DNA of 62,683 nucleotides, filler included, from Diploschistes diacapsis (taxonomy: Eukaryota): the NCBI GenBank assembly GCA_023645945.1. It is 6 parts of 6 records of this genome, joined end to end, with 100 filler letters (N's around TTAATTAATTAA, not from the genome) between each part and the next. Parts side by side here need not be neighbours in the genome. Positions count along the whole stretch, not along the records: positions 1 to 25,508 come from JALAIB010000207.1; 5 more parts are not named here. One strand, written 5' to 3'. Of this stretch, positions 14,183-59,882 are shown one piece after another. Below the pieces are notes generated by a model, which was given only the letters and a program-made list of their open reading frames with translations, did not search any database and had not been told where the DNA came from. Both the position numbers and the translations under genes were made by a program. How positions within the stretch are numbered: the stretch's first letter is position 1; the number at the start of each line of letters is the position of its first letter.

Positions 14183-15373
14183 ATGTATCTTGTATTGCTT
14201 CTCTTCGTCTCTCTCTTCGCCTTATCTACCGGCCATTCTCCCCCTCAACAACCATTGAACCCAAGTCAAAGTCACTCTACTGGCAAGAATGATGAACTCT
14301 TCTCCCTACATAAATCTCTTATCCAAATTGACTCGGTCTCCGGCAATGAGCACAACGTTGGCGAATTCCTAATCACCTACCTCAAAACTCAAAACTACAC
14401 AGTAGAGACCCAGTCACTCCCTCCTCTACCACGGACAAAACCCTCCTCTACCCGCCACAACATCTTCGCCTACCCTGGCACTCACCGCCAAACGAAGATC
14501 CTCTTGACTTCCCATATAGATACCGTGCCCCCATTTATCAACTACAGCGCCCACCACGACTCCTCCACCCACAAAGCCACTGAAATTTGGGGCCGGGGCA
14601 GTAACGATGCCAAGGGCAGTGTCGCCGCGCAGATAATCGCCCTTAACGATCTTCTTTCCTCTAACACTGTAGATCCCTCTGATGTCTCTTTACTCTTTGT
14701 TGTTGGCGAGGAAGTCACCGGCGACGGCATGCGCGCCGCCAATGACCTCGGACTCGCTTGGAAGGCTGTTATCTTCGGAGAACCGACGGAGCTGAATCTG
14801 GCCAATGGCCACAAAGGCATGAGCTTCTTCGAGGTCAAAGCCAAGGGCAAGGCCGCGCACTCCGGCTACCCGTGGCTCGGCGAAAGTGCGGTAGAAATGA
14901 TCATTCCTGCTTTAGTGGCTCTAAAGGGGTTGAAGCTTCCCGGAAGCGAACGCTATGGGAACACGACGATCAATCTCGGCGTGCTCGAAGGAGGACAAGC
15001 GAAGAATGTGGTGCCAGCGCATGCGGCCCTGCAGGCATCGGTGAGACTGGGAGGAGGGACGCCTGATGAAGTGAGAAGCACAATTGAGAAAGTGGTAAAG
15101 GATGCGAATCCGAAACTTGAAGTGGATTTCGGTGATGCCAAAGGGTATCCGCCGGTTGAGTGTGATACTGATATCGAGGGTTTTGGCGTCCAGACAATGA
15201 ACTACGGAACGGATGTGCCAAATCTGAAAGGAAGCCACAAGAGGTATCTATATGGGCCCGGAAGCATTGTGTCAGCACATTCGGATAACGAGATGGTGAA
15301 GGCGGGAGACCTCGTGAAGGCTGTGGAGGGATACAAGAAATTGGTGATGGGGGCCCTGAAGAAGTCGAAGTAG
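14183..15373 (+). CDS. Secreted M20 family metallopeptidase (ArgE/DapE-like carboxypeptidase)
   Basis: Signal peptide; TSHIDTVPP, GRGSNDAKG, VGEEV, FGEPT, GKAAHSGYPW, YGPGSI..AHS. Confidence 0.92.
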   Translation: MYLVLLLFVSLFALSTGHSPPQQPLNPSQSHSTGKNDELFSLHKSLIQIDSVSGNEHNVGEFLITYLKTQNYTVETQSLPPLPRTKPSSTRHNIFAYPGTHRQTKILLTSHIDTVPPFINYSAHHDSSTHKATEIWGRGSNDAKGSVAAQIIALNDLLSSNTVDPSDVSLLFVVGEEVTGDGMRAANDLGLAWKAVIFGEPTELNLANGHKGMSFFEVKAKGKAAHSGYPWLGESAVEMIIPALVALKGLKLPGSERYGNTTINLGVLEGGQAKNVVPAHAALQASVRLGGGTPDEVRSTIEKVVKDANPKLEVDFGDAKGYPPVECDTDIEGFGVQTMNYGTDVPNLKGSHKRYLYGPGSIVSAHSDNEMVKAGDLVKAVEGYKKLVMGALKKSK

Positions 15374-15954: not shown

Positions 15955-17070
15955 TCAAATCTTGCTAGGCTGGCCATTGTCGGGCGGGAACTCTATCTCT
16001 TCATGGGGCCACGCCGCCGTTCCTCCAGCCTTTAACAAACCCTTCGCAATCCTTCTCTTACCGTTCACCCCAAGTTCAGCCCCTATTTTCTCGAAACCCA
16101 TCTGATAGTACACCCGGACGTCCGCCCCATTCCTAACCGACCTTGCCTTTTCGCCTTCCACCTTGCCGAGCTTATCGTCCAGCCCATTCAAGCCGGCATT
16201 TAGCGCCTGGTCTAGACTCGCATACCCAAGCTCTTTCCAACGAGGAGGGTTCCAGTCAATGTTGCAATACTCGGACTCAAAGACATCGGCCGGTATCCCG
16301 CCCTTTTCCGTCTGCTTTATCCCATCAAGAAGCGAGTCGGCTTTGAGACCGCAGTCAAGTGGAAGATCATTGCCGCGTATTACGCCCATGCCGCACCTGC
16401 CGAATCTCAACGGGAAGCGTTCGACGCTGCGTCGGCAGATGGCCTGTTCGGCGCCGGTCTCCTCCATCGCGTCGAAGCATGTCTCGCACCCGGCCCGGCA
16501 GTGCTCCAGGTTATTCCAGAAGTTGCCCGATAGATAGATGGTATAGTTGGCAATCTTCTTGGGTTGGCCCTGGGGATAAGGTGGAACTTGGGCGGTGGGG
16601 TCGATCAAGGCGTCGCCCGGAGCGACGGTGAGGTTGTTGGCAAACCGGCCCTCCGGGTATTCTGGGGTGAACGGCCAGGGTGCTGGGTCGAAGGCGTCGC
16701 CGCAGCGCATCACGCGCGGTTTGTTCGCGTCCCAGGCCTCATGGAGGAATTTGGTGCAGTTTTCGGGGAGAAAGCGGGTGGAGTTTGTGCGCAACGGGTA
16801 ATTGGCGGGCGCACGGCTGAAGGGCTTTGCGTGGATGCACCAGGCATTCGCGCCGAAATATTGCCAGCTCAAGTGGTTCACGCGTCCTTGGGCTTTGTCG
16901 TGATGAGGTTGCCAAGGATAGAAGTCGTAGTCGGTGCTGTTGACTAGTGGTGCTAGAGGGTACGGGCTACGGTAGTCCTCCGGCCGGTGTTCATAGCAGG
17001 AGGAGGGTTGAGTCTGGATGGCGAGAGCGAGGAGCTGAAGGAGGAGGGAATGGCAAGAGGAGAGCTGCAT
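15955..17070 (-). CDS. Secreted cysteine-containing protein of unknown family (paralogue A)
   Basis: Intronless 371-aa ORF with a hydrophobic N-terminus; collinear similarity to 18292-19485, including EHCRAGCETCFDAM. Confidence 0.85.
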   Translation of the reverse strand: MQLSSCHSLLLQLLALAIQTQPSSCYEHRPEDYRSPYPLAPLVNSTDYDFYPWQPHHDKAQGRVNHLSWQYFGANAWCIHAKPFSRAPANYPLRTNSTRFLPENCTKFLHEAWDANKPRVMRCGDAFDPAPWPFTPEYPEGRFANNLTVAPGDALIDPTAQVPPYPQGQPKKIANYTIYLSGNFWNNLEHCRAGCETCFDAMEETGAEQAICRRSVERFPLRFGRCGMGVIRGNDLPLDCGLKADSLLDGIKQTEKGGIPADVFESEYCNIDWNPPRWKELGYASLDQALNAGLNGLDDKLGKVEGEKARSVRNGADVRVYYQMGFEKIGAELGVNGKRRIAKGLLKAGGTAAWPHEEIEFPPDNGQPSKI

Positions 17071-18291
17071 GTCTGCGGGCCCTTGCCTAGCCTGGCAAGC
17101 GACAGCAGATGGTCACTTGTGGGTGACGAGTACTTCGTTTCGGACCTGCGAAGTGTGTTGTCAGCTTGAGCTCGTCTAAAAACGGGCTTTATGTAAAGAT
17201 TCTTCGGAAAACAGGAAGGGCGTCAGGCATACCCCCCACTTGATGAAAACCCCAGCACGCTCAGGATCCATCGTAGTAGGATGGTACGCGCACATAATCA
17301 GATGATTATTGAGCCTACACAGTCAAAGCTTCAAGGTCAAAGCTTGAATGTGGCTACACCTCATGGCGATTGTCTGCTCTCGGCTTGTGCATCCGATGCC
17401 AGTCGCCACATCCAAGTACCCTAGGCGGTTGGCTCTATATAGGAGAAGGCGGGCTTTGTTTTCCACTACTCCAAACCGCGGGGTCCATCTCGAGGTTGGT
17501 TCGTCAGTATCAGCACTTCAAAGTCATGCAATACTGGATGTCCGAGTGGGTGGCGGGTACCAAGGTCTCTCTCTCTTTGCTGCATATCTTTCCTCGGACT
17601 CTTCTCACTTTTGCACAACAACGCGTTCGACCTATCGCTCATCTTCGACCCCATCGCTGGTGGGATTGGAATTCAATGGTAGGTTGGATCCCCTCCGAGG
17701 TCGGTCCAATGGTGTAATTGTTCTCTCCTATCGCTGTCTATCTCTTTGAAAAAAAGTTCTTTCAAGCTTGGCGCATCTCGATTCCAGGGATCGAACCGTG
17801 GAACGGCATCTGTCGCCGAATGTCAAAGCAATGCCGGCCCTTGCCCACTTATCCCGCTCAAATGAGCGGAACAGGTGGACCCTACCTCATTTTTCAGAAA
17901 AAGAAATTGCCCAGGTAGAGGTTAGCGTCGATAGCTTGAAAGACTGGACGTCCGGATCCAAACCATGGGGGTTATCGAGACCTACCGTGGTCGAAGAGGA
18001 GGCAGTTCTCTGCCTCCTCGTAAACTGGCCTACCTCGCTATATAAAATTTTAAAGCTTTTTTAATTTCCTCTCCCTCTTCTGCTCTTCTTGCTCTTCATC
18101 CAATTTCGTCTCCCAGGACTTTTGTGATCAGGGATCACGCTCCTGCTCCCACACAGAGTCAAAAAGTAGTCCTCCGAAAGCTCATCAGCAAAAAGGCCAC
18201 AACAAAAACCCAAACCAGAGGGGAAAAAAGGAGCCAAAAAGGAAAAAAAAAAAAAAAAAAAAAAGGGGAGGGCTCCTGCATCCCCACCAAG

Positions 18292-19485
18292 ATGAAGCTC
18301 GCGGCCCTCGTCCTCGTCGTCCTCGTCCCGCTGCTGGCGGCCGCCATCCCGATGGAGCAAACCGTCCAGTCGGCGCAGGGCAGGCAGGACACGCAGAGCA
18401 ACCAAAGCGCGGCGGCCTTCTGGCCCGGGGCGCTCGCGATGGAGCCCTGGGTCGCGCCGCTCTCCTTCCTGGCGCCCATCTTCGGCTTCGCCATCTCCAT
18501 CGTCGCCACCCTCCTCGGCACCGGCCAGATCCGGACGCGCTCGCCCGGCCCCGAGCCCGAGGCGGACCCGCCGGCCATAAACTGGACCTTCGACCCGCTC
18601 GCCAACGTGCCGCACTACCCCTGGACCCCGCGCCACGACATCAACCGGCCGAACCACCAGACGTGGAACGCCTCGGTCGACTTCGCCTACTGCCTGCACG
18701 TCCGGCCCGGGACGCGCGACCCCATGGCGGGCGTCACGTCCGCGGTCGGCGGCCGCACCTACCTGCCGCAGAACTGCACGACCATGCTGCACCTGGGCCG
18801 CGGGGGCGAGAACAACCCGACGAGCCTGCACAACGTGCTGCCGTGCGGCGAGGTCGCGGCGGGCGGCGACGTGCACGGCCGCAACGGGACCATCGTCTAC
18901 AAGACGCTCAAGGTCTATCTGGCGACGGACCAGTGGCACAACGACGAGCACTGCCGGGCGGGCTGCGAGACGTGCTTCGACGCCATGGCCGAGTTCGGCG
19001 CCGAGCAGGCCGTCTGTCGGCGGGCGATCAAGTTCGGGGCCAAGTGTGCCATGGGCGTGGTTAGCGGGGAGCCGCCGGTGGATTGCGGCGGGAAGCATGC
19101 GCTGAAGGACAACGTGGGGGGAGGGAAGAGCGGGTGCAAGTTGAAGTGGGATGTGCCGCGGTGGATCGAGATGGGGTACAGCAGCTACGACCAGGCCATG
19201 TTTTCTGGCTTGGAGAAGGAGGCCTTTAGCTACGAGAGCGCGCTGAGGACGGACGGGGACATCAGGGCGTATTATGTCAATCGGCTGCCGGAGGTGGGGG
19301 CAGAGGTGCATGGGGGTTGGGGGAAGAAGCAGGTGCTGAGGCATTTGCTGCAGGGGCAGACCGATACGGAGTTGGAGGAAGGGTGGTTGTGGTGGTTGAG
19401 GAAGGGGAACTGGGATAAGAGGGACCGGTCGAGAGAGCTGGAAAGCCCGCAGACCGAGAGCGTGGGGCCAGCGAAGGCGACATAG
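18292..19485 (+). CDS. Secreted cysteine-containing protein of unknown family (paralogue B)
   Basis: Start MKLAALVLVVLVPLLAAA (signal peptide) at 18292; extra hydrophobic segment; strong GC3 bias; shares motifs with paralogue A. Confidence 0.85.
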   Translation: MKLAALVLVVLVPLLAAAIPMEQTVQSAQGRQDTQSNQSAAAFWPGALAMEPWVAPLSFLAPIFGFAISIVATLLGTGQIRTRSPGPEPEADPPAINWTFDPLANVPHYPWTPRHDINRPNHQTWNASVDFAYCLHVRPGTRDPMAGVTSAVGGRTYLPQNCTTMLHLGRGGENNPTSLHNVLPCGEVAAGGDVHGRNGTIVYKTLKVYLATDQWHNDEHCRAGCETCFDAMAEFGAEQAVCRRAIKFGAKCAMGVVSGEPPVDCGGKHALKDNVGGGKSGCKLKWDVPRWIEMGYSSYDQAMFSGLEKEAFSYESALRTDGDIRAYYVNRLPEVGAEVHGGWGKKQVLRHLLQGQTDTELEEGWLWWLRKGNWDKRDRSRELESPQTESVGPAKAT

Positions 19486-20799: not shown

Positions 20800-22787
20800 T
20801 CATCGTTTATCAACCGCTTCTTTGCCATCGTCTTGCTGCCGATCCATCATGCGCCCGGCAAGCGCCAGCACTGACAGAGAATCCAGTTGTGACATTCGAT
20901 CTTGCGCCCCGAGAGCCTGTCCAAGTGGGAATGGATGTGCATGACTCGGTGCATGAAGAGGATTATGGGTGGATATTGATTGCAGATGTGGACCAGGGTC
21001 CGAAGGTTGGTCCATGTGGGCCGAATGCGACCTGGGACGAGATTCGTCCCTACGACCCTCTCCAGCTATGGAAAGGTGACGCAGCGCCTTGGGATACTCT
21101 GTAGCTCGTCAACATTGTGCGAGACTGGAACTGCTGGTTCATACCAGGTCGAGCGAGGGTCGTACCGCAGAATTCTGACATCGCCTTGGGCATCGTGGCT
21201 GACGTGGCTGATGGCTTTGCCAAATCCAAAAGTGGCTGGCCGGTCAGAGGCTTCGTCAACAGGTTTGCAGGTGGTGGAAGGGATCGCTTTGGCCAGACGT
21301 CCTCGGCCGGCGTCAGTGGGGTGAACGCCGTCGAAGCGCCGCTACCTCCAGAGATATTTGACGAATTCGACGACTTGGAAGTATCGTGTCGCAGAAACGA
21401 AGCTGGAGAATGAGCCTCCGATCGCCGAGGATTCGAACTGAACGATGAGCCAGGTTCGCTCGGCATATGGGGAACGCGGTGCGGGATAGCTGCATCTCGT
21501 GGCTCCAGTGGTAGGATCCTCGGTAAACCTTGAGGTCTTGGAGGCTCGATACCACGCGAGACCTGGGCGGTTTGGCTGGGGAGCGGCTGCTTCGCGCTAG
21601 CGGAGACTGGTGTTGACGGGTAAGAGGATTGCGAGCCTTCGGCTGGGATGCCGGAACTGAATCGCGGCACTGAACCGGTGGGCGAGTTGAGGGAACTGTT
21701 CGATGGAGAATACCCAGATATGCTTATAGAATCTTTGCGATGGCACCTAGGGTTGCTTGTCTCTTTCGCGAGACCCGTCATGCTTGAGGCGCTGCCACTG
21801 CTCGCATTACTTACTTCAGTTTCAAGTTTCAGCCGTTTCCCTTCTGGCACACAATAAGCAATGCCCGAATAACGCGCCAGATGGCATGCACCTACCCGAG
21901 GGGTTTTGCGCGTTCCGTGCCTTGAAATCTCCCAGATATCGTACATAGTCGCGATACTGGCTGGTGCACTTGTACTTTGCGAGTTCGGCATTGTAGACTT
22001 CTTTGGCCGCAGCGGCTTGGCTTTCGTACCGCTCCTTCTCCCCGGGCCCCAACTCTTGCCATTTTTCCCCGACCGATTTCGCGATTTCGGTGAACGAGAG
22101 TTTGAGCGGGCGAAGTTCCTCTCGTATTTCTGAGGGGGATGGTCAGAGAACCAATCTCGTTTTCAGAAGGCTGGGATCTTACTGTTGGAAAAGATGACAT
22201 AGGCCGAGGGCGCTCGCTCCGGGGCATTCTCGTCTGGCTGGATATGGGTCAGGTTCTGCAGGACAAGATGGTATGAGGAGCAAGGATGCTAAAGCTTGTT
22301 GAACGTCGGATGCCTTACCTTCGGATGGCGCCGGTACTTCCTCTTCAGATGACCCGACACGGAGCTCTTACCCTCTCCATGACTTGTTGTCGATTTAGTA
22401 TCCGAGTCGAGTTGTTGAATATCGTCAGCAGAGGTTGTGCGCGAACCACCGTCGATGACCTGTTGGATGCTGATCCCTCGTGCATGGGCGATTTCCCTTT
22501 GTAGCTTCTGGAAGCAACTCAGTATCGAAGACTCAAAGGCCGAAAAGCGAATGCTGCATCAGAAAACCAAGCAGGTATTTCCTTACCCTTCGATGACCGA
22601 GCTTTACGTTGAGAGCCTCACTAATCCACAGTCAGTAGGAGGAAACATACTTTTGCCAGGGAAGACCTCACAGGTCCGACTCTATAATACAAAGGACCGT
22701 TTCCCATGTGTCAAACCCTTCGTTAAGAAAACTTTCGGTATATTGTTGAAGCCCAAGCCGCTCGAAGATGTGAACAAGGTCAGTCAT
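20800..22787 (-). CDS. SAM-domain + HMG-box transcription factor (multi-exon)
   Basis: Exon 1 MTDLVHIFERLGLQQYTESFLNEGFDTWETVL, then EALNVKLGHRR/KLQREIA (SAM); KRKYRRHPK/PDENAPER..SAYVIFSN...LSFTEIAKSVGEKWQ...EKERYESQA (HMG box); C-terminal LSVLALAGRMMDR. Confidence 0.85.
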
Positions 22788-23753: not shown

Positions 23754-24761
23754 TCGCTTTTCCCAGAGGGCCCAGAATCAGGCTCATGTCCAGTCTCTTG
23801 GGTATGGGTACAGATGGCTATCCTCAGTCGAAATGCAGCGGTGTGTGCCGTAGTCGGCGAACTTCTGAGAGGGCAATGTAGGTGGAAATGGCTCTTGCCA
23901 CTCCGTTGCAACGGGTCCCGTATCTTGCTTGGTCTGGAATCGGAGATCTGGCATACATTCCCCTCCCGCGTTCCTGGCAGAACGCGCGCCGGATCAACTC
24001 CAGAAGAGGTAGGTATGCTTTGCTGTGAGCTTCGGATGGTCAGGTTGGATGAGGAAGTCATGAAGATACCATGCCTACTAGATCTTCTTTCGCAGGAGCG
24101 TTCCTTGAGGCCTACCAGAAGAGATAAAGGCAAGGATCATCTAGCAACATAAGGCTCATCTTAATATGACTTTTCAACATTGTACAGAGTAGGTGTGGTT
24201 CAACCTCGCGATGGGGCAGAGATGGCTCGGTCCTGGGCTTCTGTTGGGACTCGAAGTGAGAAATGTATGGGCTAGAGCGAAGTTTGAAAGCCCCCTGGCG
24301 GCTCTGCCAGCCAGCCCCAGCCCGATGTTGGTCAGCCAGTTGGAGCTACCAGAAAAAAGGTTAATGCATAGTATCTATCCATCTCCATCGCGATCTGACA
24401 TGTCTTGGCGGTCGAAAAGACACGATTCATAGGCGCTGGGCATGATGGTCGATGGCAAACCGGCATTGGGGCAAAAGATGGGAAAAGGGAGAAAGGGAGA
24501 AAGGGAAGGGGCTTGTGGGGGGATTTTCAATTTTCATCGATCCGTCGGCCAAACCTCGATGTTCGCCCAGCAAATAACGTCATGTCTCCGTTGTTTCGCT
24601 CTCGCCACCTCCAGATTCTGAATTGCCCCAACACGAAGGGAAAAGGGAAAGTACTAGGTACCTTGGTATTATGAGGGGCATAGAAAGCGCACACGGTAAC
24701 TTGAAGAAGCCTTGAAGAGGGGACCTACCTACTTTTATCTGTCAGCTCCCATATACAATAT

Positions 24762-24806
24762 ACCATATCCCCATATCCCATATCCCATATCCCATATCCC
24801 ATAACC
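24762..24806. repeat. (CCCATAT)n tandem repeat
   Basis: About 5-6 units read directly. Confidence 0.85.
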
Positions 24807-24867
24807 ATAACGTGCTGTCCCGCTCGGTTTCTGTTTCTCCGCCGTCGGCTCTATCCGGAAAGCTTGG

Positions 24868-24981
24868 TACATACTGTACTGTACTATACTGTACTGTACT
24901 ATACTGTTCTGTACTGTACTTCACTGTGCTGTACTGTACTGTTTCTGTACTGTACTTCACTGTACTCGACTGTACTGTACT
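24868..24981. repeat. Imperfect (GTACT)n pentanucleotide repeat
   Basis: About 110 bp of ACTGT/GTACT units. Confidence 0.9.
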
Positions 24982-25508
24982 CCCACGTGTTTGGCTTGGT
25001 GTCGGCACTCCTGAAGAACCACCCTCAGTCAGCGCCTTCTAGAACGATATCCCTCCAGTACCTAGCGTTTCAACGGCCCCTACCTAACCGAATTCTTTCT
25101 TGCAGCATGGCGTGCATCTTATCCTGGCCTATGATCACAACCCACACTGAAGCTCAGACCAGTGATCTAGAACACAGTCAAAGCACCACAACGCCCCCCA
25201 GCATAAGCTCAATGAAGTGAGTCCTCCGCCGCCACCTCGATGAAGCTCAGTTCCAGCCTTGCATCGACTCCTTCATCCACCACCAGCACATCCTCCCAAC
25301 CGGCCCCCCTCGGACTATACACCAACTACCAGCCGACAAAAAAACCCACTGCCATCCAGCTTTACCCACGGGAACAAAAAGCCAAACAAAACCACACGCC
25401 ACCCTCAAAACTCCCCTTCCACCTCCATACCTATCCGACATATCCGACACCGCTCAAATCATCTTCCACTCGCCCCACCTCACCTCCGTTCCGCACTAGC
25501 ACATCCCC

Positions 25509-25608
25509 NNNNNNNNNNNNNNNNNNNNNNNNNNNNNNNNNNNNNNNNNNNNTTAATTAATTAANNNNNNNNNNNNNNNNNNNNNNNNNNNNNNNNNNNN
25601 NNNNNNNN
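25509..25608. other. Artificial contig spacer N44-TTAATTAATTAA-N44
   Basis: Identical 100-bp linker with stops in all six frames. Confidence 0.97.
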
Positions 25609-28423: not shown

Positions 28424-28523
28424 NNNNNNNNNNNNNNNNNNNNNNNNNNNNNNNNNNNNNNNNNNNNTTAATTAATTAANNNNNNNNNNNNNNNNNNNNN
28501 NNNNNNNNNNNNNNNNNNNNNNN
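28424..28523. other. Artificial contig spacer
   Basis: Same 100-bp linker. Confidence 0.97.
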
Positions 28524-31337: not shown

Positions 31338-31437
31338 NNNNNNNNNNNNNNNNNNNNNNNNNNNNNNNNNNNNNNNNNNNNTTAATTAATTAANNNNNNN
31401 NNNNNNNNNNNNNNNNNNNNNNNNNNNNNNNNNNNNN
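31338..31437. other. Artificial contig spacer
   Basis: Same 100-bp linker. Confidence 0.97.
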
Positions 31438-34241: not shown

Positions 34242-34341
34242 NNNNNNNNNNNNNNNNNNNNNNNNNNNNNNNNNNNNNNNNNNNNTTAATTAATTAANNN
34301 NNNNNNNNNNNNNNNNNNNNNNNNNNNNNNNNNNNNNNNNN
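34242..34341. other. Artificial contig spacer
   Basis: Same 100-bp linker. Confidence 0.97.
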
Positions 34342-59782: not shown

Positions 59783-59882
59783 NNNNNNNNNNNNNNNNNN
59801 NNNNNNNNNNNNNNNNNNNNNNNNNNTTAATTAATTAANNNNNNNNNNNNNNNNNNNNNNNNNNNNNNNNNNNNNNNNNNNN
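59783..59882. other. Artificial contig spacer
   Basis: Same 100-bp linker. Confidence 0.97.

Follow-up and report, generated by a model that had tools for sequence, protein, structure and literature searches.

The question raised by this locus is whether two genes that diverge from each other at positions 15,955 to 19,485 of the analysed DNA from Diploschistes diacapsis (assembly GCA_023645945.1; 62,683 nucleotides, filler included, called the window below) encode the two parts of one secreted system or two separate members of a larger protein family. Both genes, named A and B here, are located on a single contig (window bases 1–25508) of the 29-Mb, 4,361-contig genome, and the runs of N at 25509–25608, 28424–28523, 31338–31437, 34242–34341 and 59783–59882 are joins between separate contigs. 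As stated in a preliminary description of the sequence, A and B are uninterrupted open reading frames (ORFs) facing away from a spacer of about 1.2 kb, which we measured as 1,221 bp, and the two proteins align over most of their length (35% identity, 303 columns, E 1e-44 in BLASTP); at the DNA level an inverted match of 109 nt with 76% identity spans the core motif. The same description regarded the pair as a dedicated two-component system, and this part was not supported. We propose, with about even confidence and by analogy to proteins of similar fold, that A and B are old paralogues of a likely secreted family with at least 11 members and a Gnk2/DUF26-fold core, each acting alone as a glycan-binding protein. 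In place of two parts of one system we thus have what are likely two independent proteins with a sugar-binding or antimicrobial role, and their site of action is likely the hyphal surface or the thallus matrix.

Family membership, dispersal and age of A and B are established. With A as query the genome yielded ten genes at nine loci, and so did another member as query, with identical genes; an eleventh, remote member was found on contig C1107, so that the family comprises at least 11 members at 10 loci. Applying the family profile to 4.7–9.9 kb around eight other loci gave one gene in each (8/8), and no second family gene was found in three genome searches on the contigs of the other loci, several of which are short, so that a distant partner is possible. 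B is as close to an unlinked paralogue on contig C1635 (153 bits) as it is to A (146 bits). A profile search of 1.84 billion representatives led to 48 matches at E≤0.001. Among 30 clusters looked up, the eight with a label belong to Diploschistes diacapsis, Thelotrema lepadinum or Gomphillus americanus, and two more Diploschistes labels came from separate searches. For four of the paralogues in this genome, an identical protein labelled Diploschistes exists. Thelotrema and Gomphillus are Graphidaceae, as is Diploschistes, and for the labelled matches the family is thus restricted to the Graphidaceae. That homologues also occur as divergent pairs, a check suggested in the preliminary description, was not borne out: two genes are present at one of the ten loci, the other nine having shown a single gene, and the four named Thelotrema members carry non-consecutive tags (006946, 008122, 008733 and 010632) on four different contigs, of 128,440 bp for the orthologue of A and of 53,587, 187,840 and 147,936 bp for the other three. 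Judging from these distant tags and different contigs, Thelotrema does not seem to have retained the pair.

The duplication itself is old, as had been supposed, since the agreement of A and B at four-fold degenerate third positions (17/49 identical) is near the 30% expected by chance. We reconstructed a tree from 28 rows of near-full-length members, leaving out fragments and remote members, in which A is the sister of Thelotrema MMC10_008733 (support 97/93), its reciprocal best hit, and B the sister of P0003 (91/87). A clade of A and B alone was rejected by the approximately unbiased (AU) test (p-AU 0.0007), and therefore their split predates Diploschistes and Thelotrema; a wider clade that unites A and B with the closest relative of each was neither found in the tree nor rejected (p-AU 0.107). 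As random placement of 11 genes would give only about 0.01 adjacent pairs, the two genes probably came to lie head to head through an old local duplication. This layout may provide shared regulation, and the proteins likely do not need it; no upstream repeat of note common to A and B was found in the spacer, which upstream of B contains a TATA-like word and also a long run of A (18242–18265, a simple repeat). That A and B are a co-regulated obligate pair, either as heterodimer or as a two-domain unit assembled from two genes in the manner of tandem DUF26 proteins, is in our view very unlikely: the divergent layout has been retained despite saturated synonymous sites, its origin by chance is improbable, the wider clade is not rejected by the AU test and plant DUF26 domains do pack as tandems, but the single genes at the other nine loci, the scattered Thelotrema members including the orthologue of A and the separate positions of both lineages in the best tree all argue against it.

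To describe the shared architecture we used a family alignment of 53 rows. Here A and B show a cysteine at all 10 positions, as claimed before for the pair, and pairwise alignments of the two misplace the third one (C123 in A, C185 in B). Across the family only eight of the ten are general, the last two being part of a C-terminal lobe that is absent from short members. Nine short-form rows are without both lobe cysteines and five full-length rows jointly lack Cys162 and Cys185, and this paired loss points to two disulfides. Long forms such as A and B thus consist of the core and the lobe with its two extra cysteines. In front of the core of B the N-terminal motif is conserved at Y109, P110, W111, H115, D116, R119, H122 and W125 (0.79–0.97) and has a predicted local distance difference test (pLDDT) score of 78–95 in the predicted structure. 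Some members depart from this plan. The paralogue on contig C4091 (L016:3568-4627, minus strand) has one likely intron of 67 nt directly preceding the conserved Trp; its N-terminus is long and atypical, and the motif that is invariant elsewhere is altered. A divergent long subfamily (P0045, P0046, P0048 and P0049, 458–619 aa, one of them labelled Gomphillus) is without Cys162 and Cys185 and has long N-terminal regions of acidic character in which several dibasic sites occur. For each of the remote members P0052 and P0056 the recorded contig measures 247,190 bp and is probably one and the same; the two may represent separate genes or fragments of similar ones.

The family is unnamed at the sequence level, in agreement with the preliminary description: neither A nor B matched a Pfam family at E≤0.1 or gave a meaningful match among PDB sequences, and no description of the family was found by our literature search. 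The predicted fold, in contrast, is a known one. A search with the model of the B core retrieved Gnk2/DUF26/KP4-like structures, with DUF26 and LDL structures ranking above KP4, and the model shows the two helices on a five-stranded antiparallel sheet that are typical for DUF26/Gnk2 as well as a likeness to the LDL/Y3 fold. Unexpectedly, the best structural matches were plant domains and not solved fungal structures. The core of B is therefore predicted to be Gnk2/DUF26-like, and the core of A would be so by homology to B.

Despite the similar predicted fold, the family differs from ginkbilobin-2/DUF26 proteins (PF01657; PDB 4XRE, 3A2E, 6GRE, 6GRF) as it is fungal and not from plants, has 8–10 cysteines instead of six, possesses an extra N-terminal motif, long loops and a C-terminal lobe, and carries one domain per chain; the PF01657 profile matched 0/17 and 0/48 members. 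Likewise the profile of GBD_Y3 (PF22803) matched 0/48 members and no sequence match to LDL (4NDS) or Y3 (5V6I) exists, whose chains of 94–112 aa come from mushrooms, whereas the family proteins have 270–430 aa with added parts. To KP4-like proteins (Zt-KP4, 8ACX; the GNK2/KP4 orphan-effector family; the Xanthoria KP4-like clusters) the structural match is weaker than to DUF26, a Pfam match is missing, the family proteins are much larger and no Xanthoria label occurs among the named matches. By sequence we thus have neither DUF26, GBD_Y3 nor KP4 at hand, but a Gnk2-like family with added elements that has expanded in a single lichen lineage and likely works like these proteins.

According to passages of PMC13211469 and PMC5923269, Gnk2, LDL and Y3 are carbohydrate-binding proteins with harmful effects on fungi or other cells, and it is from such fold neighbours that glycan binding by A and B is proposed. 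Several points weigh against it. The C-X8-C-X2-C motif that defines DUF26 (PMC6368629) is replaced by C-X3-C-X2-C in the family, the mannose-binding residues of Gnk2 (N37, R119 and E130, as given in part of PMC5923269) do not look conserved by cysteine spacing, which would put Val257 of B at the E130-like place, and none of the sugars tested was bound by PDLP5, a protein of this fold. A KP4-type killer or effector acting on a protein target of competing fungi or the photobiont, for example in calcium homeostasis, and binding no sugar is unlikely. Few folds are as widespread among orphan effectors of fungi as GNK2/KP4 (portions of PMC10462633), but KP4 stands below DUF26 and LDL in our fold search, no Pfam killer-toxin match was found among the 48 members at E≤10, and mature A and B are longer than 300 aa with an isoelectric point of about 6.2, compared to the 112-residue chain of Zt-KP4. 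Secreted metal-binding proteins or enzymes using the sandwich fold would explain why H115, D116, R119, H122, H136, E219, E226, D230 and E234 are conserved in 73–97% of the covering rows, a polar conservation exceeding the needs of a scaffold. As no enzyme or metalloprotein is among the top fold matches and such residues also line lectin pockets, we consider this quite improbable.

Both proteins begin with a hydrophobic stretch (best 9-mer Kyte–Doolittle hydropathy, KD, of 2.62 in A and 3.53 in B) as the preliminary description had noted, from which secretion of A and B is likely; in A two further cysteines (C6 and C25) lie in or at the end of it. The additional hydrophobic helix claimed for B is real (residues 57–75, 19-mer KD 2.23; absent from P0003, the nearest relative of B). 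Of the two roles offered for it the pro-region is likely and the membrane anchor is not, since the stretch precedes a Kex2-type site at Arg83 and a dipeptide run. Ste13-type dipeptidases trim such X-Pro/X-Ala runs. Ile at P4, Thr at P2 and Arg83 fit the widened Kex2 rules (parts of PMC8528282), cleavage being a prediction, and the run was equalled in 17/20,000 shuffles, a test made post hoc after the pattern had been noticed. In A, Glu at P4 and Asp at P3 result in a poor fit, and its run was equalled in 156/20,000 shuffles (also post hoc). Thus B resembles K2PP effectors by its aliphatic-X-X-Arg site after an N-terminal pro-region, whereas the site of A fits poorly and site plus dipeptide run are not a family-wide trait. 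A structural or adhesive role in the cell wall or thallus matrix, with the fold as a scaffold, could be read from the five N-glycosylation sequons in each of A and B, the likely secretion and the many paralogues, but is most improbable given that repeats are missing, that none of 15 members examined has a hydrophobic C-terminal anchor (best 19-mer KD ≤1.09) and that the near-invariant motif suggests a specific partner.

For glycan-binding proteins acting alone the following course may be suggested. A and B would be exported by their signal peptides, and B would lose its hydrophobic pro-region at Arg83 before dipeptide trimming. Both are predicted to form a disulfide-locked sandwich of two helices and five strands with an N-terminal arm of conserved His, Asp, Arg and Trp residues and a C-terminal lobe that is optional in the family. 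Judging from fold neighbours only, they could then bind glycans in the cell walls of other fungi, of algae or of host tissue, resulting in antimicrobial or recognition activity with specificities set by the diverged loops.

Partner recognition and the control of other microbes by lichen fungi are still poorly understood, with lectins and effector-like proteins as the leading candidates (sections of bioRxiv 2024.08.16.608140 and 10.64898/2026.06.16.732702); the former mentions 47 KP4-like secreted proteins in Xanthoria, 18 of them up in thalli. The family described here is invisible to Pfam and its subfamilies are older than the Diploschistes–Thelotrema split, and it is now directly testable, as its fold is predicted, the limits of the mature proteins are likely known and a few conserved residues have been singled out. 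Where the plant DUF26 domain originated is a question to which the family contributes a fungal branch, and the head-to-head arrangement of A and B is of less interest than the family. A bolder and doubtful, though possible, reading is that of a Graphidaceae-restricted radiation whose core, compared with all solved fungal structures, is nearer to plant DUF26/Gnk2 and which gained a new conserved binding arm and a second lobe, giving lineage-specific glycan readers that choose or police photobiont, host lichen or competitors. The family would then be a fungal sister, or a transfer, of a domain thought land-plant specific by sequence.

Table 1: Positions of A, B and their features in the window (GC3, G+C content of third codon positions).
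Feature	Position	Strand	Remarks
Gene A, long-form family member	15955..17070	-	371 aa, uninterrupted ORF, GC3 0.69
A likely signal peptide, residues 1 to about 25	16996..17070	-	9-mer KD 2.62 at residue 10; inferred
A possible but poor processing site, Arg34, then three X-Pro/X-Ala dipeptides	16951..16971	-	
A Gnk2-like core, about residues 76-232, 8 Cys, long insertion after third Cys	16375..16845	-	By homology to B, the modelled protein
A near-invariant motif of the family, residues 190-212, helix with C-X3-C-X2-C followed by strand with GA..A.C	16435..16503	-	
Divergent spacer A/B	17071..18291	.	1,221 bp
Gene B, long-form family member	18292..19485	+	397 aa, uninterrupted ORF, GC3 0.93
B likely signal peptide, residues 1-18	18292..18345	+	19-mer KD 2.73 at residue 3; inferred
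B likely pro-region, residues 19-83	18346..18540	+	Includes hydrophobic stretch 57-75 (18460-18516)
B likely Kex2-type site Ile-Arg-Thr-Arg83, then six X-Pro/X-Ala dipeptides	18529..18576	+	
B N-terminal motif YPW...HD..R.NH..W, residues 109-125	18616..18666	+	Ordered in model; candidate ligand-binding surface
B predicted Gnk2/DUF26-like alpha/beta sandwich, residues 127-261, 8 Cys	18670..19074	+	
B C-terminal lobe, residues 262-370, Cys265/Cys282 and PRW.E.GY	19075..19401	+	Largely absent from short-form members

The neighbours of the pair are ordinary fungal genes. One flank holds an M20 peptidase and an amino-acid permease, the former (14183–15373, plus strand) having a likely signal peptide and lying tail to tail with gene A at a distance of 581 bp. 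Downstream of B follows a likely intron-containing gene (21050–22558, minus strand) with a stretch that we take to be HMG-box-like, and its 313-aa ORF alone gave no Pfam match. The GC3 of B compares with 0.46–0.62 in eight neighbouring ORFs and 0.61–0.90 in the other paralogues, and in both A and B the third positions change from a C-rich 5' end to a G-rich 3' end. A simple repeat with a short unit of about 5 nt is located at 24705–25220.
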